Source: an uncultured Verrucomicrobiota bacterium
GTDB lineage: Bacteria; Verrucomicrobiota; Verrucomicrobiia; Palsa-1439; CAZOTB01
NCBI GenBank assembly: GCA_964582645.1
Contig: CAZOTB010000002.1
Coordinates: forward strand, 12,777-76,776
Length of the DNA stretch: 64,000 bases
Direction: 5' to 3'
How positions within the stretch are numbered: the stretch's first letter is position 1; the number at the start of each line of letters is the position of its first letter. A model generated the notes under the pieces. The model saw only the letters and a program-made list of their open reading frames with translations, was not told the DNA's origin and searched no databases. This document shows positions 6,789 to 61,584 of this stretch, in pieces. Made by a program: the position numbers and the translations under genes.

Positions 6789-7187
6789 TTAGCGACGCGC
6801 TTTGAGCACCTTCTGCGCTTTGTGGTTGTCGGACGTGCGCAACACGACCAGCGCCTGACCGCCCGCGTGACCGCCCGTGGCGTAGAGATACTCAATGTTG
6901 ATGCCCGCTTGGCCCAGGGCAGTCGCCGCCCGCCCGATCGCGCCCGGCTTGTCGGAGAGTTTCACGCACAACACATTGTGCGTGCCCACGTCGAGCCGGT
7001 GTTTCTTCAACACTGCCATCGCCTTGTTCGCGTCGGACGGGACAAGGCGGACGATGTTGTGGTCGAGTCCGCCCCCGGCATCGAGCGAGAGCAGGTTGAC
7101 GCCCTTGGCCGCCATGGCGGAGGTCACTTTGCCAAGCGTCCCGGGTCGGTTTGGCAGAACAAACGACAATTCTTTCTGAATGCTCAT
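6789..7187 (-). CDS. ACT domain-containing protein
   Basis: ATG at complement 7185-7187 (MSIQKELSF) with an AAGGA element upstream. Two ACT-like halves. Immediately upstream of ppx, so probably an operon. Confidence 0.6.
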   Translation of the reverse strand: MSIQKELSFVLPNRPGTLGKVTSAMAAKGVNLLSLDAGGGLDHNIVRLVPSDANKAMAVLKKHRLDVGTHNVLCVKLSDKPGAIGRAATALGQAGINIEYLYATGGHAGGQALVVLRTSDNHKAQKVLKARR

Positions 7188-7320
7188 GATGGATTCCTTC
7201 CTCTGAATGTCACCCGGGGCGACTGTAGTGAGGGTGACCGGCTGGGGCAAGCGCGAATCCATTGAGCGAGTGGGGTTGAGTTTTGTCCAATTTGGTGTCA
7301 TAAGTGACCACCAAATTCCG

Positions 7321-9477
7321 ATGAGCAGAAGTCTGGGACGAATCTTCAGTGCGGGGGTGGCGGTTTTCCTCTGGATTGCCATCCTGCCGCTCCATGCCGA
7401 AATCGGGCCGACGGTCGAGTCGGGCCAGGTCGCGCAGGCGGTGGCGGCGCTTCTTGAGAAGAACCACTACAGCGGGCAAGCTTTGAACGACGAGGTCTCG
7501 CGACAGGTGTTCACAAACTACCTCGATGCGCTCGATCGCGACCATCTGATCTTCCTGCAGTCGGACGTGGATCGGTTCAGCGAGTTTGCGACCACCCTCG
7601 ATGACCACCTGATGGTGGGCAACCTGCGACCCGCGTTCGAGATTTTTGGCGTTTATACCAATCGCGTCGAGCAGTTCGTCGAGGCAGCCAAGGAGTTGGT
7701 GAAGGAAGAATTTCGGTTTGATGAGAACGATTCGATCCTGATTGACCGCAAGGAAGCGCCGCGGCCGAAGGACGAAGCCGAGGCGCGCCGGCTCCTGCGC
7801 CAACGTGTGAAGTTCCAGTTGCTCGAGGAACGGCTTGGGAAGGAAAAACCCGAGGAAGCGAAATCCATCGTGACCCGCCGGTACGAGCGCCTGGCGCGGA
7901 CAGTGCGCGAGGCGGACACGGAGTTCGTGCTCGATGTGTATCTGAACGCGTTCAGCCAGGCGTACGATCCGCATTCGCAGTACATGACGCCGTCGTCGCT
8001 CGACAATTTCACCATCAACATGCGGCTGTCGCTGACAGGCATCGGCGCGGTGCTGCGTTCGGATGACGGTTACGCCAAGATCGTCGAAATCATCCCGGGA
8101 GGTCCGGCCGACCTCGACAAGAAGCTGAAGCCCAACGATCGCATCTGCGCCGTGGCGCAGGGCGACGGCGAGTGGGTGGACGTGGTGGACATGAAGTTGA
8201 ACAAGGTGGTCGAGATGATCCGAGGGCCGAAGGGAACGGTTGTCCGGCTCAAACTCATCCCGGCGGACGCGTCGGATTCGTCGGTGCGTTCCGAACTGCG
8301 GCTGACGCGCGATGAGATCAAGCTCACCGAGCAGGAGGCGAAGGCGAAGATCGTCGAGAAAGCGGACGGAAACGGGAGGCTGCTGCGGTTGGGTTACATC
8401 GATTTGCCGTCGTTCTACGTGGACACGAAAAAGGGGCCGAACGCGAAGAGTTCGACGCGGGACGTGGCGAGGCTGCTGGAGAAGTTGAAGGCGGAGAAGG
8501 TGGACGGATTGGTGATGGACTTGCGCCGGAACAACGGCGGGTCGCTCACGGAGGCGATCTCGCTGACGGGCTTGTTCATCAAGGAGGGGCCGGTCGTGCA
8601 GGTCAAGGACTCGCATGGCAGGCAGATCACGCAACGCGACGACGACAGCGGGATCGCGTATGAAGGGCCGATGGTGGTGCTGGTGAGCCATCTCAGCGCG
8701 TCGGCGGCGGAGATTTTCTCGGCGGCATTGCAGGATTACGCGCGCGCGTTGATCGTGGGCGCGCAGAGCACGTTCGGCAAGGGAACGGTGCAACAGATTT
8801 TCGAACTGGATCGGGTGGTGGGATTTCGGAAGCCCACGAAAGATTCGAGCGGGGCGCTGAAATTGACGATCCAGAAGTTCTATCGCATCTCCGGCGGCTC
8901 CACGCAGGTGCGCGGCGTCGTTCCCGACATCCAGTTGCCCTCGGTGTTGGACAGCAGTCCCGTGGGCGAAGCGACGCTTCCGCATGCGTTGCCGTACGAC
9001 GAGGTGAAACGATCCGATTATCGTTCGTGGGGACTCGTGGGCGAGCATCTGTCGGAACTGCGGTTGCGTTGTGCGAAGCGGATTCTGAACAACGTGGAGT
9101 TCCGGTACGTGCGCGAGGACATGGATCTCGTGAAGAAGCGGCTCGAGGAAAAGACGGTTTCCCTGAACGAATCCAAGCGCGAGGCGGAGAAGAAAGCAAA
9201 CCTCGAGCGAAGGGAAGCGCGAAAGAAAGAACGACTAACGCGCAAGGATGAGCCATTGAAGGCCACCGAGATCACGCTGGCCACGCTCGACGGAAAGACA
9301 AATATGGTATCGGTGGCCAGGCGCCCGGCCCCCCAATCAGCCGCGAGCGAGGATGGGAGCGCAGAGGAAGCAGAAGTCAATGAGCCGGACATGGATCCGG
9401 TCTTCCGGGAAAGCTTTGAGATTTTGACGGACTACATTACCCTGAGTTCCGTCATGACCGCACGAGTGGAGAACTGA
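7321..9477 (+). CDS. carboxy-terminal processing protease (S41 family, Prc/Tsp-like) with PDZ domain
   Basis: ATG at 7321 followed by a signal peptide. PDZ region, S41 catalytic region (GAQSTFGKGTVQ), and a long charged C-terminal tail. Confidence 0.85.
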   Translation: MSRSLGRIFSAGVAVFLWIAILPLHAEIGPTVESGQVAQAVAALLEKNHYSGQALNDEVSRQVFTNYLDALDRDHLIFLQSDVDRFSEFATTLDDHLMVGNLRPAFEIFGVYTNRVEQFVEAAKELVKEEFRFDENDSILIDRKEAPRPKDEAEARRLLRQRVKFQLLEERLGKEKPEEAKSIVTRRYERLARTVREADTEFVLDVYLNAFSQAYDPHSQYMTPSSLDNFTINMRLSLTGIGAVLRSDDGYAKIVEIIPGGPADLDKKLKPNDRICAVAQGDGEWVDVVDMKLNKVVEMIRGPKGTVVRLKLIPADASDSSVRSELRLTRDEIKLTEQEAKAKIVEKADGNGRLLRLGYIDLPSFYVDTKKGPNAKSSTRDVARLLEKLKAEKVDGLVMDLRRNNGGSLTEAISLTGLFIKEGPVVQVKDSHGRQITQRDDDSGIAYEGPMVVLVSHLSASAAEIFSAALQDYARALIVGAQSTFGKGTVQQIFELDRVVGFRKPTKDSSGALKLTIQKFYRISGGSTQVRGVVPDIQLPSVLDSSPVGEATLPHALPYDEVKRSDYRSWGLVGEHLSELRLRCAKRILNNVEFRYVREDMDLVKKRLEEKTVSLNESKREAEKKANLERREARKKERLTRKDEPLKATEITLATLDGKTNMVSVARRPAPQSAASEDGSAEEAEVNEPDMDPVFRESFEILTDYITLSSVMTARVEN

Positions 9478-18839: not shown

Positions 18840-18859
18840 GTAAATCCCTCGCGGATTGT

Positions 18860-18940
18860 TTGTGGTCGAGCGCTTCAGCGCGGTCATGGCGAATCTGGCC
18901 TGTCCCTTCAAGCCCGCGCTGAAGCGCTCGACTACAAGCA
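18860..18940. repeat. palindromic repeat element, copy A (19-bp perfect inverted repeat gtcgagcgcttcagcgcgg / ccgcgctgaagcgctcgac), terminator-like between convergent genes
   Basis: Perfect inverted repeat seen directly in the sequence. A second diverged copy is at 60085-60165, sharing aagcccgcgctgaaNcgctcgactaca. Confidence 0.6.
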
Positions 18941-35383: not shown

Positions 35384-35480
35384 GCAAGCTGAAGCTTGAA
35401 CTACCTACGCAAGCAGCAACCCCGTTCTTGGGAATCGAACGATCCCGGCGCCAGCGTTCGTAGTTCAAGCTTCAGCTTGC
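35384..35480. repeat. palindromic element: perfect 21-bp inverted repeat (gcaagctgaagcttgaactac ... gtagttcaagcttcagcttgc) flanking a 55-nt core
   Basis: Seen directly. The arms are themselves near-palindromic (gaagcttc). A related hairpin containing cgcttcagcttg is at 51795-51850. Confidence 0.6.
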
Positions 35481-35585: not shown

Positions 35586-36236
35586 TTGCACACTCTCGGC
35601 CAAACAAGGGAAGGCGAATCACATGCGCCGAACGATCACGCGATTGACTGGATCCCGGTTGAGCGCCAGCAGGAAAAAGCACTCCATGGCCTCGTCCGAC
35701 TCGATTGGAAAGGACACCGCTTCTTGATCGCCACTGACTGTGCCTTCAGCGACGACGCCATGGATTCCCTCGCCACCCACGACCTGCGGGCGGAGGTGCT
35801 CGTCGTCCCAGGACGACTCGGACCGTCAGATCGTCCGGCTCAAGCCAGGTACCACGACCTGCTCCGAGCGTTGATCCCCGCCGCAAACCCGGAACTCATC
35901 GTCCTGTGCGACGGTGACCCGTCCCTCTTTTCCGCCACACTCGCGGTTTGCCGGACCGCGTGCCAAGCCCCCGTGCTCTCCACCCGGCTGACGGGTGCCC
36001 TGACCTTCAGCTTGACGCCGGACCGCACACTGGTCATCAGCCCCTATCACCCGAACAGCAAACCCGTTCGGCTCTCGCCGCGCCGGTCACCTCACGACTC
36101 TTTACAACCTTCAGCCCTCGACATTAAACCCCGCCACAGTGCCGATCGCCCTGTAAACAGCCCGTTTCTCGGTCCGGTACTCACGACCCGAAACGCAGCC
36201 TCAGAACAACACGGCGGGACGCATCCAGAGGAATAG
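35586..36236 (+). pseudogene. degenerate ComEC/Rec2-like MBL-fold C-terminal remnant (TTG start in track)
   Basis: The pattern GHRFLIATDCAFSDDAMDSLATHDLRAEVLVVPGRL...ELIVLCDGDPSLF aligns to the end of the ComEC MBL domain (LltGDie..E..L....advLkvpHHGS...aviS.G..N.yghPh). The metal-binding His residues are lost (HHGS -> PGRL) and the N-terminal MBL motifs are absent. Confidence 0.3.
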
Positions 36237-36238
36237 CC

Positions 36239-37075
36239 ATGACATGTAATCATTCAAGTGGAGGTTTCTTCGGAAGAATGAAGGATAAAGTTGTTGGTGG
36301 ATATGAAGGAATTAAGAATAGATTGTTAGGAGATGGTGTATTTGATTTGGAGTATGTTGGACAAGAAAGATCTGGATTACCAGGTATTAATTATGCTGGT
36401 AATAAAGCATTTACGCTGATTGAATTACTTGTTGTTACTGGAATTATTGCTATTTTAGCTGCGATGACTTTGCCTGCTTTGAGTTCTGCTAAAGCTGCCG
36501 GGAAAAGAGCATCATGCATTAATAATTTGAATCAAATTGGAAAAGCCATGACGATGTATGCTGGAGATAATAAAGATTTTCTACCTCCAACTGGGACTCT
36601 CATGAATGATGTAACTTCAGATTGGCAGCTTAGAACTCCTTTAGGCACAAATTTTAATGCGGGCATGGTTATAGCAAATGCAGGCACAACAATCTCGACT
36701 GGAAATATTGCTAGTTATAAATCGTTTGCTTGTCCCGATGCCAGTTATTTTACACTTAAGAAATTAGATGATGATTGGTCAAATCCAAGCGGAGTACCAG
36801 AAAGTTCTTATTTGTATAGAAGTAAAATGCATGGAAGACTTGAAAAGCTTGGTGATCTAAATGGTCAAGAACCAAATAATCTTATTATGACGGACTTTAA
36901 CAAATATTATGGTAGTCCAAATGAGAATCATCGAGGGAAGTTAGTAAACGTTTTATTTGCTGATGGACATGTTGCAACAGCAAATAATATAAGTAATGAA
37001 TTGGGTATTTATGTTCCGGCTCGTTTATCAAATTATTGGAATATTCTCAAGGTAAAATTTCCTGGAGGAATTTAA
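36239..37075 (+). CDS. prepilin-type N-terminal cleavage/methylation domain protein, DUF1559 (H-X9-DG) family, in a low-GC island
   Basis: [45 protein letters not shown] is the PVC-lineage prepilin/DUF1559 N-terminus. [12 protein letters not shown] looks like the H-X9-DG motif. The gene is about 35% GC against a roughly 62% GC background. An unusual 57-aa leader precedes the FTLIE motif. Confidence 0.8.
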
Positions 37076-37324
37076 CTATTTTATAAACTTTTAAATAGAT
37101 TATTTTCTTCGATTACTTATGAGAAAAGGTTGTTTGTTAATGAGAGGGATGTGTTAGTTGTCGTAGCCGCGTGGGGTGAGAGCAGCTTCTCATGCAGAAA
37201 TGTCGGGCTTGGTGCATACCTCCGATCATTGGTGCCATTCGAGTAATTCGTGGCTACAGTCTGCTCCATGACCTCCCCATCACGATCCTTGTGAATCGGC
37301 TTCAATAGGATTAGAGTATGCCCG

Positions 37325-37950
37325 ATGAAACTCCGGACGGACCTGCTCAAGCACGCGACTCCAAAGGAAGCACTCAAGGAGGGACTGGCGAACATTCACC
37401 GTTACAAGCCCGAGCCGCGTTTCTCCAAAACTGGGACTGGGAGTCTGTCGTCCGCCACAACCGAAGAGTCTGCGAATGAGGTCGCGCGCAGTACGGCACG
37501 AATTCAGAAAGCGTTGCGAAAGTCCGGAGCCAATGGGAGGAAAAACGGCTCGTCGCCGCGTCGCTAGGCGACACCCTCGATTTCCTCCGCCGTTGTCACC
37601 GCGAGGCACCGTTCTTCTTCTTCAACGGGAACACATTCGCTGAGATCGGCCGCACATTCTCAGACTACCTCTTTGCGGAACTCCCCGCCGTCCGCCGCCG
37701 CGAAGCCACTTCCGCCGTCGCCCACTACATTGCCGGTGTGCTTGACCGGCAGTTCATGGTTGAGATTGTCGAGGAGCTTTGCCAGAGCGCAGAACTCAAG
37801 CCGGGCGACCGCGTAAAGACTCTGCGCGGCTCCTCCCGAGGCGCAGTTGTCCGCTTGCTCGATGATGGCCGGGTGGTCTGGAGAGCGGACGGCGCGCGAA
37901 TGGAGATCGTCGCTTTGCCCGAGAGCCTGCTTCTCGACAAGTCGAAGTAA
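37325..37950 (+). pseudogene. frameshifted hypothetical gene (ORF 37325..37567 in frame 2 continues as frame 1 from about 37480 to 37950)
   Basis: Frame 1 is open and protein-like (…SQWEEKRLVAASLGDTLDFLRRCHREAPFFFFNGNTFAEIGRTF…) but has no start until the GTG at 37738 / ATG at 37756. The frame switch coincides with a gcgcgc tract at 37483-37490. Confidence 0.3.
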
Positions 37951-38091
37951 TGCAGTCCCAGAGAGCCGGCAAAACCATTACCGGAACAATCATTCTGCCC
38001 GCAATCATTTTGCCGGATTCTCGGAGAAATCGGATCATCCGCAGCGCCGCCTTTGTGCATCGGGGCGCCTGAGGCGGTGTCCGTAGCTTGC

Positions 38092-51428: not shown

Positions 51429-51794
51429 GTTCGAGTGAATCGGGTTGTCGTCGGAACGCGCCGTTTGTGTTCTGAACACCGGCCGCGCCATTTGGTTGCG
51501 GACAAGAGCGGCAAAGCGTCCGAGGTGCCACGCTCTGCTGAACCGCCATTCGGCAAGGATATCCGCGATCAACACACACCCTCCCCCGCGCGTTCAGGAC
51601 AAATCATCGTCGTGCCTGTGAAAACGGCTGCATCGTAGGGGAAAAAAGCGCGTCTTGTCAACGCGCCAGCGCCCTGCCCTTTTCGATTTCCATTCCACCT
51701 GCGGCGGATACGATACTGCCGTGTCTCGACACGCCCTGATCGGGGACCGGATCTGGGATGGGCACCCTGCCGGACGCTCGAACAGCTTGCGTCT

Positions 51795-51850
51795 GGAGTT
51801 CACGCTTCAGCTTGTCTGGGTTCGACTGCTGCACCAAGCTGAAGTGTGAG
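51795..51850. repeat. hairpin element tcacgcttcagcttg ... caagctgaagtgtga (15-bp stem with one G-T pair, 20-nt loop)
   Basis: Seen in the intergenic region upstream of panC. It shares the gcttcagcttg core with the element at 35384-35480. Confidence 0.5.
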
Positions 51851-51945
51851 CTCCAAACGAGAGCAAATGATGCGCTGAACAGGGACTCTTGGCCGCCCTA
51901 CAAACTCTTGTCATCCTTCCCGTCATCCAGTTTAGTTGTCTCGCC

Positions 51946-60084: not shown

Positions 60085-60165
60085 CAGTCGAGCGCTACAA
60101 CGCGGGCGTGGGGGAAAGGGCATTGCACTTGAAGCCCGCGCTGAATCGCTCGACTACACGCTGCC
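60085..60165. repeat. palindromic repeat element, copy B (diverged copy of 18860-18940)
   Basis: agtcgagcgctacaacgcgg ... cttgaagcccgcgctgaatcgctcgactaca. Arms are imperfect. Lies downstream of ybaK. Confidence 0.5.
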
Positions 60166-60633
60166 CTCCTCCTTCACATCCACCACGTGCAACTTCAGAA
60201 CGCGCGACAGTTCCGCAGCCGCCACCGACACCAGTGCGTTTGACCCACCGGCGCCAAACCAGACTCGCTCTTGTTGCAGCACCAGCGGATCGCAGTAGAT
60301 CGGGACCGATTCGTCCTCGAAAAACGGGTTCACTCCGCCCACCGCAAAGCCGGTCCATGCTTCGATCTGCTCCGGCCGGGCCGTGGGCAGTTTCTTGCAG
60401 CCGGTGAGTGCTTTGAGCTTTTTCATCGAGACCCGGTTCGGCCCCGGGCAGAGAACCAGGATTGGTTTGTCGTCCGCGACGAAGCAGAGCGTCTTGATGA
60501 CCTGTGCCACGGGGATGCCGAGTTGCGCGGCGGACTCACCGGCAGTGTGAGTCGAGTGATCGAACCGCCGCAACTCAAACTGCACGCCGTGCGATTCCAG
60601 GAACGCCCTGACAGATTCCATGTCGCGTTTCAT
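60154..60633 (-). CDS. ybaK: Cys-tRNA(Pro)/Cys-tRNA(Cys) deacylase YbaK-family protein
   Basis: ATG at complement 60631-60633 (MKRDMESVRAFLESHGV...). YbaK/ProX deacylase pattern (…KTLCFVADDKPILVLCPG…). The track ORF is over-extended. Confidence 0.75.
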   Translation of the reverse strand: MKRDMESVRAFLESHGVQFELRRFDHSTHTAGESAAQLGIPVAQVIKTLCFVADDKPILVLCPGPNRVSMKKLKALTGCKKLPTARPEQIEAWTGFAVGGVNPFFEDESVPIYCDPLVLQQERVWFGAGGSNALVSVAAAELSRVLKLHVVDVKEEGSV

Positions 60634-60657
60634 GGTCAACTCAGTTCCGAAGATGCC

Positions 60658-60780
60658 AGGGCGCGAATGCCCCCGTCGTACGCCGTTTCGCGACGGGGGT
60701 TTCGCGCCGTGCCGGCAGGGCGAGGGGCCGCGGCGCGAAACCTCCGCCCCAAACAGCAGGGGCGGAGGCATTCGCGCCCT
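60658..60780. other. nested multi-hairpin element (candidate structured RNA or composite palindromic repeat)
   Basis: The outer 14-bp inverted repeat agggcgcgaatgcc / ggcattcgcgccct encloses three inner hairpins: cccccgtcg/cgacggggg, ggtttcgcgccg/cggcgcgaaacc and cctccgcccc/ggggcggagg. All were read directly from the sequence. Confidence 0.4.
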
Positions 60781-60910
60781 GCAGCAGCGACGACAACCAT
60801 TTCACGTTCGTCAAAGGTCATTGAATGCGCTGGCCGCCTTGTAGCAGCCGGGGGGTCGGGTCGGAAGTTTTTTAGTGCAAATCCGAGCGCGATTGTTACG
60901 ATGCGCCCAC

Positions 60911-61228
60911 ATGTTACCCGCAACCGACTACTCTACATTGCATCGGGTACTGGTGCTCATCGGCGCCGTCGCGGTGCTCGCGAGCGTCATCGGCAACCTC
61001 GCCTACGCGCGCCGCAACGTCACCTTAAACATCGAACTCGTCGCCGCCGCGAACAAGCTCCAGGAAGTCAACGCCACCCAGCAACAGGTCAACGCCATCG
61101 CCCAGGATCTGATCAGCTTCGCGCCGCGTTTCCCGTGGCTGGTTCCGTATCTCCAGAAATACGGATTGGTCCATGTGCAGCAGGGACCGTCCTCCGCGCC
61201 GGGCGCGGCCTCGAAGGGAGTACCATGA
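60911..61228 (+). CDS. hypothetical small membrane protein
   Basis: ATG at 60911 (MLPATDYSTLHRVLVLIGAVAVLASVIG: one TM helix). The stop overlaps the next start (ATGA). Confidence 0.45.
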   Translation: MLPATDYSTLHRVLVLIGAVAVLASVIGNLAYARRNVTLNIELVAAANKLQEVNATQQQVNAIAQDLISFAPRFPWLVPYLQKYGLVHVQQGPSSAPGAASKGVP

Positions 61229-61584
61229 GCGAACCCGATACCACGGAACACGAGTACGGCACCGAGCCGACCGCAGCCGAGGTGGACCCGATCCTGGAAT
61301 TGCGGCTGATCCTGTACGGCTTGGGATTGCTCGTGTTGCTCATGAGCCTGTCGCTGAACCTCTACATCCGAAAACAGAACCGGAACATCGAGACTCAAGT
61401 CAACCAGCTGCGTGCTCAGATTCAGCAGATCGAGGGAAGCCCATTGTACCAACAGAACAAGAACGGCATGCAGAACCTCCTCGAGGAGTTGAAGAAAGAA
61501 GCCAAGGATCGCGCGGAGGCAGCGGAGTTGCTCAAGCGGTACGGCATCGAAGTGCAGAGCCGGCCGCCACTGCCGGACCGATAA
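61225..61584 (+). CDS. hypothetical small membrane protein with coiled-coil
   Basis: ATG at 61225 with a GAAGGGAG Shine-Dalgarno. TM helix LRLILYGLGLLVLLMSLSL followed by a coiled-coil. The 437-aa track ORF 60271..61584 is rejected. Confidence 0.5.
   Translation: MSEPDTTEHEYGTEPTAAEVDPILELRLILYGLGLLVLLMSLSLNLYIRKQNRNIETQVNQLRAQIQQIEGSPLYQQNKNGMQNLLEELKKEAKDRAEAAELLKRYGIEVQSRPPLPDR

Follow-up and report, generated by a model that had tools for sequence, protein, structure and literature searches.

The window analysed here is a 64-kb stretch of DNA from an uncultured Verrucomicrobiota bacterium. It carries a ybaK-type gene for a Cys-tRNA(Pro) deacylase, which is followed on the minus strand by a TolC-like gene. 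A small open reading frame (ORF) of 105 amino acids diverges from ybaK on the plus strand and is followed by a 119-aa ORF without Pfam match and then by a gene for a Gfo/Idh/MocA oxidoreductase. Between the two divergent genes lies a 277-nt spacer, and inside this spacer, hence outside any gene, is a compact palindromic element. Its parts are named below in the terms used for GTAG-tagged REPs, which Di Nocera, De Gregorio and Rocco (2013, PMC3733652) define as short palindromic sequences in which one end carries an unpaired GTAG.

60154..60633, minus strand: ybaK-type Cys-tRNA(Pro) deacylase gene (YbaK/tRNA_edit, PF04073); 20 nt separate its ATG, at 60633, from the element
60654..60784, no strand assigned: whole element, 131 nt, interpreted as two REP units joined head to head, tags outermost (REPIN-like doublet)
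60654..60710, plus strand: left REP unit, in which TGCCAG is a degenerate tag, GGCGCGAA/TTCGCGCC is the basal stem and the apical hairpin is CCCCCGTCG...CGACGGGGG
60711..60729, no strand assigned: inter-unit spacer of 19 nt, which the middle helix encloses as its loop when the fold is nested
60730..60784, minus strand: right REP unit, in which (in minus-strand reading) CTGCAG is the tag (GYAG type), GGCGCGAA/TTCGCGCC is the basal stem and the apical hairpin is CCTCCGCCCC...GGGGCGGAGG
60660-60667 (+), 60701-60708 (-), 60732-60739 (+) and 60771-60778 (-): four 8-mers GGCGCGAA/TTCGCGCC in alternating orientation
60911..61228, plus strand: small ORF divergent from ybaK, with an ATG at 60911 that gives 105 aa, no Pfam match

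An earlier note, made from the sequence alone, had described a perfect 14-bp outer stem at this site enclosing three perfect inner stems of 9, 12 and 10 bp. The outer stem is present (AGGGCGCGAATGCC at 60658-60671 and GGCATTCGCGCCCT at 60767-60780); each of its arms occurs once only in the window, and with their flanks they extend to 19-nt arms that are 95% complementary (60657-60675 / 60763-60781). The 9-bp stem (60670-60678 / 60691-60699) and the 10-bp stem (60741-60750 / 60759-60768) are likewise perfect. The middle stem is perfect over 11 bp (GTTTCGCGCCG at 60699-60709 and CGGCGCGAAAC at 60731-60741), and reaches the claimed 12 bp only if a G of the neighbouring stem is counted twice. The boundaries adopted here, 60654-60784, are slightly wider than the 60658-60780 given before, since the conserved 6-nt end tag of the repeat family described below lies outside the 14-bp outer stem.

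Aligned in a common orientation, four segments of ~30 nt reduce to one unit, GGCGCGAA-(TG/A)-CC(C/T)CCG..., and the whole element consists of two imperfect palindromes of ~55 nt in inverted orientation, which have an 8-bp basal stem in common and an apical hairpin each of their own. The 8-mer GGCGCGAA/TTCGCGCC is found four times within 119 nt, against about eight occurrences expected in the whole 64 kb. Each palindrome is preceded by a degenerate form of the conserved TTGTAG tag; compared with GTAG, the right unit has GCAG, which fits the form GYAG, whereas the left unit has CCAG and departs at the first position.

RNA folding of 60650-60790 returned a nested four-helix structure, in agreement with the four-helix-junction-like arrangement proposed earlier, and the suggestion that the element is unusually well structured for a spacer was also borne out. 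On the plus strand the predicted energy is -96.1 kcal/mol (z = -6.9; 0/200 shuffles as good), and on the minus strand -94.6 kcal/mol (z = -6.3; no shuffle as good). The stems named in the earlier note contain Watson-Crick pairs only and both strands fold equally well, which argues for a palindrome at the level of DNA rather than an RNA shaped by selection on one strand. As the four basal half-stems are identical in sequence, two folds are possible, one nested (1:4 + 2:3) and the other a tandem of two hairpins (1:2 + 3:4). The nested fold has the lower energy, both as RNA (-95.1 vs -82.4 kcal/mol) and as DNA (-59.1 vs -48.1 kcal/mol); the hairpins of the left and right units folded singly give -40.6 and -42.1 kcal/mol. 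The four-way junction is an automatic by-product of two inverted palindromes, not a purpose-built RNA fold.

Comparison with known RNA families and signals was negative. No Rfam family matched the whole window at gathering score, and a search of 60400-61000 with E up to 10 gave only spurious miRNA and snoRNA matches. In 60100-61300, no promoter-like or terminator-like site, including a U-tract terminator, was found.

The ybaK locus itself is conserved in relatives. Ten YbaK proteins from metagenomes are 66-78% identical to that of the window, and contigs were retrieved for three of them (72-77%). The whole gene order is retained in loci L005 and L006, the ybaK-tolC pair in L003 and L004, and the start of ybaK is kept as ATGAAACG. 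The spacer upstream of ybaK measures 149 and 91 nt in relatives, compared with 277 nt in the window. In all four relatives (L003-L006) the alignment has a gap over the element and its immediate flanks, and none of these ybaK loci contains a match to the repeat model. Judged from these alignments, the element is lineage-specific at the ybaK site. Set against its nearest relatives, the window copy would be an insertion into the spacer between ybaK and the small ORF, with an alignment that fits deletion in the relatives as well; at 72-77% protein identity, the intergenic alignment does not fix the exact junctions.

Three further observations concern this spacer. A block at 60862-60905, just upstream of the small ORF, is conserved with L005 and L006 (CGGAAGTTTTTTAGTGCAAATC...TTGTTACGATGC); no other part of the divergent spacer is conserved, and the block is a candidate shared promoter or leader region. 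A 14-nt direct repeat (60775-60788 / 60835-60848) was considered as an insertion footprint and rejected as probably due to chance, its distal copy being present also in a relative that is free of the element. Finally, independent Logan assemblies from two runs (the ends of L002, L134 and L136) break at 60751-60759, in the 8-nt loop of the right hairpin, with an overlap of 9 nt. These breaks were not accepted as a sign of repetitiveness, since a typical assembly k-mer is longer than the repeated arms and an assembly or sequencing artefact is as likely; they are probably such an artefact at a strong hairpin.

Searched with blastn against all retrieved loci, the whole element returned identical source contigs only. 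The method is blind to the family to which the element belongs because the apical stems diverge, and this family surfaced only through a three-motif pattern, GGCGCGAA-N20-50-TTCGCGCC-N10-40-GGCGCGAA, with which representative genomes were scanned. The pattern is permissive: of the 118 matches listed, most fall in unrelated phyla and are due to chance, and none comes from the source genome. At least seven loci among the matches listed have the complete architecture of the window element, namely TTGTAG-GGCGCGAA-nGCC..hairpin..GG-TTTCGCGCC, a spacer, and an inverted copy ending in TTCGCGCC-CTACAA. At least five of the loci listed are in the Verrucomicrobiia MAG SMAG_U15312 (L009, L073, L081, L095 and L109) and at least two in Verrucomicrobia AM_0936 (L032 and L061); among the named genomes in the matches listed, copies with the full architecture are confined to Verrucomicrobia MAGs. 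A covariance model of the repeat unit (R1) detected one more doublet, L009:7775-7878, which was absent from the set used to build it. At least six doublets are present across five 8-kb loci of SMAG_U15312, and at least two in AM_0936. The genome scan also listed unrelated repeat families with GGCGCGAA/TTCGCGCC stems (L010 6467-6566 and L107 1-1419, Proteobacteria MAG Centralia_155; L059/L084, Ilumatobacteraceae; L033/L075, Propionibacteriaceae), examples being tandem GTAGGGGGCGCGAATTCATTCGCGCCCTA units with a period of 43 nt and CATG-GGCGCGAAAACTTCAGGTATCCGTAGTCTTCGCGCC units.

A scan for a CAG-tagged variant, in a set of metagenomes from which the source sample is absent, yielded eight loci; in seven of them the model recognises true copies. 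Metagenome copies are concentrated in samples Ga0187892 and Ga0187893, the former of which also contains the ybaK relative L005. Family units form a three-unit array in both L126 and L130. Four of the eight metagenome loci have their copies at a contig end, as is expected given that assemblies break at repeats.

The window element was recognised independently by a second covariance model (R2), built from 23 family units of which none comes from the window. It matched 60730-60784 with 47.7 bits (E 1e-11) and 60654-60710 with 42.9 bits (E 2.5e-10), and gave nothing above 11.3 bits in the rest of the 64-kb window. Searches with the outer stem, the unit motif, R1 and R2 found no second copy of the element in the 64 kb, and no further family copy was detected in the 6.2 kb by which contig L133 continues past the right end of the window. 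The source genome thus has one family copy in about 70 kb examined. The earlier note had named identical copies scattered as simple repeats as a finding that would speak against it; in spirit this is what is seen, the copies being scattered and related but not identical.

The genes next to other copies, as identified by Pfam, are unrelated between sites. One copy lies 15 nt after kdsB and just before pyrG, another just after pyrG, a third between convergent genes for an asparaginase and an M90 peptidase, and a fourth between hprK and ptsI. Such mixed contexts rule out a regulator that is tied to a single gene family.

Within the family, the tag (consensus TTGTAG) and the basal stem are almost invariant, and 98.5% of the basal-stem cells across 27 distinct units are paired. 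Compensatory variants of this stem are found in both units of L009:7775-7878 (GGCGCGAT/ATCGCGCC) and in L126 (GGCGGGAA/TTCCCGCC). Formal covariation counts are weak, with one compensatory pair in the basal stem and 78 of 500 shuffles doing as well, because the stem hardly varies. The apical module, by contrast with this near-invariance, has a stem of 4 to 12 bp with unrelated sequences; the first bases of the module are always GCC and the last always GG, and many of the loops resemble GTGTCGTTTC. The spacer measures 16-35 nt in sampled copies and differs in sequence. All eight doublets examined fold with a long outer stem, and the seven full-architecture loci fold with a long outer stem and a middle stem. 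Similarity between copies ends exactly at TTGTAG / CTACAA, beyond which the sequences on the two sides are unrelated, and neither a target-site duplication nor a direct repeat was found in the flanks of eight copies.

The dinucleotide that follows GGCGCGAA offers a further view of how the two units of a doublet are related. It is the same in the left and right units (TG, CG or GG) in six of eight doublets with the nGCC layout, a count that leaves out L032 and L061, which are offset by one base in the alignment. The second base is G throughout and three different bases occur at the first position; left and right differ in L009 and L129 (TG vs CG). In the nested fold these dinucleotides pair with each other. 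Their agreement fits an extended outer helix and, equally, a doublet that is copied as a unit.

REPs are associated with RAYTs (REP-associated Y1/HUH tyrosine transposases), and regex and phmmer searches for a RAYT gene in the window, in the 6.2-kb extension L133 and in all family loci found none. RAYT genes beside related repeats are present in other Verrucomicrobia. One unrelated match of the genome scan, L071 from the Verrucomicrobia MAG OH_CBrB_294, the only one of the loci searched in this way to give a positive result, has a RayT-family gene embedded in REPs of its own. There, at 7150-8000 (minus strand), the gene lies among several copies of another REP, TTGGAGCGCGGGCGACCCCGCC...GGCGAGGTCGCCGTGGCTCCA, and a duplicated fragment of its own 5′ end is found downstream. 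Six RAYT homologues were retrieved in addition (contigs L137, L140, L143, L145, L147 and L149), one of which, P0211, has named relatives from Opitutus, Lacunisphaera and "Verrucomicrobiota bacterium". All six are flanked by inverted tagged REPs, as follows.

L140 and L147: CTGTAG-GGCGGGATCGCTGATCCCGCC
L145: TTGTAG-GGCGGGATTTCCAAATCCCGCC
L149: ATGTAG-GGCGGGGTCGCCGACCCCGCC
L143: TTGTGG-GGCGGGAT...
L137: TTGGAG-GGCGCGGTTCCACCCGCGCC

A GTAG tag on a GGCGGG.. stem is thus found beside the RAYT in L140, L145, L147 and L149; L143 has a GTGG tag on an equal stem, and the REP of L137 reads GGAG-GGCGCGG... These repeats, sister families of the window family, score only 15-23 bits with R2. By analogy with these sister families, the window family may likewise be mobilised by a RAYT. 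In three of the contigs cysD-cysN (PAPS_reduct, GTP_EFTU) and a gene for an Rrf2 regulator lie upstream of the RAYT gene (L140 3470-4468; L143 2442-3486; L147 1535-3468), with an extra PqiA-domain ORF between rrf2 and the RAYT in L147. This one chromosomal position in three Verrucomicrobial lineages is consistent with a domesticated transposase that is inherited vertically.

The element upstream of ybaK is one of four tagged REP doublets in the 64 kb, the other three of which belong to other families. The doublet at 18857-18940 has its tags outside and 32-nt arms that are 88% complementary; its left unit reads TTGTGG-TCGAGCGCTTCAGCGCGG and its right unit, on the minus strand, TTGTAG-TCGAGCGCTTCAGCGCGGG. 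A further unit of that family lies at the extreme end of the JGI contig L133, ~6.2 kb past the right end of the window. The doublets at 35384-35480 and 51785-51864 have a common core, AGCTTCAGCTTG; the former (GTAG-TTCAAGCTTCAGCTTGC) has its tags inside, as a TT dimer, and the latter (GGAG-TTCACGCTTCAGCTTG) has them outside. Directly after the doublet at 35384-35480 lies a low-GC island (36001-38000; 0.477 vs about 0.61 elsewhere), which contains a DUF1559/N-methyl pseudopilin-like ORF (36239-37075) and small ORFs without Pfam match. The island may be horizontally acquired DNA. Proteins of the DUF1559/N-methyl pseudopilin-like type are common in the PVC superphylum; this ORF and the confinement of the repeat family to Verrucomicrobia MAGs among the named genomes listed both suggest an origin of the window in that superphylum, probably in Verrucomicrobiota.

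Taken together, these results make it very probable that the element is a GTAG-type REP head-to-head dimer, REPIN-like in form, which belongs to a family dispersed in Verrucomicrobia and lies as an ordinary repeat insertion in the spacer between ybaK and the small ORF. Of the candidates raised in the earlier note, the composite REP element is the one upheld, in that a dispersed family of palindromic repeats supplies both of its inverted units. The unit plan comprises a (T)TGTAG-like tag, GGCGCGAA, a variable GCC...GG apical hairpin and T-TTCGCGCC. The doublet may have spread as single-stranded DNA through a RAYT that would recognise the tag and basal hairpin, a route that has been proposed for REPINs. 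The window copy, in which both tags are degenerate (CCAG and GCAG for GTAG), may no longer be mobile. With only 20 nt between the element and the ATG of ybaK, transcription of the gene from a promoter of its own must begin upstream of or inside the element, so that the 5′ leader of ybaK probably includes the element. At this position a structure of about -95 kcal/mol could incidentally stabilise the mRNA, impede access of the ribosome, or do nothing.

This last point leads to the alternative that the REP has been exapted, so that the doublet now acts in the ybaK 5′ leader, or as a barrier between the divergent genes, by stabilising mRNA, slowing initiation or blocking read-through. Such a role is compatible with a REP origin, and is suggested by the 20-nt distance to the ybaK ATG with a promoter upstream or inside, by the great stability of the structure, and by effects of REPs on mRNA stability and termination reported by Di Nocera et al. 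(2013, PMC3733652). It is rather unlikely here, however, as the site is not conserved in relatives, neither a U-tract terminator nor a promoter-like site was found in 60100-61300, and other copies occupy every type of intergenic context. A more ambitious proposal is that the family represents a distinct composite REP/REPIN class of Verrucomicrobia, in which the basal stem is conserved and the apical hairpin can expand, and whose head-to-head dimers adopt a genuine four-way junction that is itself recognised by RAYT, junction-binding proteins or RNases, and of which this copy has been co-opted for ybaK expression; we regard it as improbable. The earlier note had also considered a dedicated cis-regulatory RNA, in the leader either of ybaK or of the operon that starts with the small ORF, and a small ncRNA gene. 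The compact, highly structured fold (z about -6 to -7) and alternative pairings (1:2/3:4 vs 1:4/2:3) that superficially recall those of an attenuator would suit a riboswitch- or attenuator-like RNA. Both the leader and the ncRNA are, however, largely refuted and very improbable: no credible Rfam family is matched even at E up to 10, the element is missing at the syntenic loci L003-L006, the two strands fold alike with named stems that are Watson-Crick only, family copies stand beside unrelated genes and in arrays, and no promoter or terminator was found in 60100-61300.

Two other explanations start from the DNA rather than from a transcript. Inverted-repeat ends of 17-19 bp, a length of 97-156 nt and dispersed copies would also characterise a conventional MITE with terminal inverted repeats moved by a DDE transposase. 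The lack of a target-site duplication in eight copies, the existence of single units and head-to-tail arrays, and the nature of each half, itself a palindrome with a tag like those found beside RAYT genes, make this highly unlikely. The four occurrences of GGCGCGAA/TTCGCGCC in 119 nt, where about eight are expected per 64 kb, could alternatively be operator half-sites for a transcription factor acting on divergent promoters, in keeping with the divergent promoter region in which they lie. An equal arrangement is found elsewhere after stop codons and between convergent genes, and it is missing in relatives with the same gene pair; this interpretation is scarcely credible.

For annotation, reading the element as a very probable REP doublet means that a striking structure upstream of a tRNA-editing gene is an inserted repeat rather than some new riboswitch or sRNA, and the structures at 18857-18940, 35384-35480 and 51785-51864 are to be read likewise as REP insertions. 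REP/REPIN-RAYT systems have been studied mostly in Proteobacteria, and here a REP family is described from uncultured Verrucomicrobia, together with a working covariance model and a presence/absence polymorphism at a syntenic site. The related REPs that flank RAYT genes, including three RAYTs at the conserved cysD-cysN-rrf2 position, provide material for the study of REPIN population dynamics in the PVC superphylum. The element is of a known kind in an under-studied phylum.

Among known systems, E. coli BIMEs are mosaics of alternating REPs, defined by linker motifs that bind IHF or gyrase and by Y and Z unit types. The units of the present family likewise alternate in orientation with short linkers, and form three-unit arrays in L126 and L130. 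Unlike those of BIMEs, their sequences are unrelated to the E. coli units, and they give no evidence of IHF or gyrase linker motifs or of Y/Z units. REPINs are inverted REP doublets with a spacer that form a hairpin in single-stranded DNA or mRNA, and their mobilisation by RAYT has been proposed (Bertels and Rainey, 2011, PMC3116915). REPINs are further characterised by a single-copy cognate RAYT which the REP in question flanks in the genome concerned, and by replication as doublets, which outnumber singlets beyond expectation and are better conserved (PMC3116915). The window element likewise has inverted units, 60654-60710 (+) and 60730-60784 (-), and a hairpin with 19-nt outer arms. Its family further resembles REPINs (PMC3116915) in being ~100-130 nt long, extragenic and dispersed, with conserved ends and a variable interior that carries compensatory changes, but the interior of the window element consists of three helices instead of a single long hairpin.

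The closest resemblance is to GTAG REPs. According to Di Nocera et al. (2013, PMC3733652), these units lie outside genes in many dispersed copies per genome and often form HH dimers, with tags outside, or TT dimers, mostly with spacers of 20-100 bp; the two units of a dimer can each make a hairpin or join in a single large fold. Degenerate tags such as GYAG or GTRG occur, and the loops are sometimes long and self-complementary. The same paper places GTAG REPs in the PVC superphylum, with abundance in the verrucomicrobium Opitutus terrae, notes that they often flank RAYT genes in "REPtrons", and reports that REPs affect mRNA stability and termination. The window element agrees with this description (PMC3733652) in its short GC-rich palindromes, its HH dimer and its alternative folds. 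Its 19-nt spacer is just below the 20-100 bp of most dimers, and of its tags the GCAG of the right unit is of the GYAG type, the CCAG of the left unit not. Its GGCGCGAA/TTCGCGCC stem with a GCC...GG apical module matched none of the 24 families of that paper as far as its text describes them. A literature search for the family motif gave nothing relevant, and as far as could be checked the family has not previously been catalogued. The REPs of the Verrucomicrobia REPtrons (L071, L137, L140, L143, L145, L147 and L149) differ from the window family in that they have simple stems of 8-9 bp, loops of 5-6 nt and no apical module, and occur in other genomes. They are exemplified by (T)TGTAG-GGCGGGAT..ATCCCGCC, with GTGG and GGAG tag variants, as against TTGTAG-GGCGCGAA in the window family, and they have in common with it the extended tag and the GGCG start of the stem.
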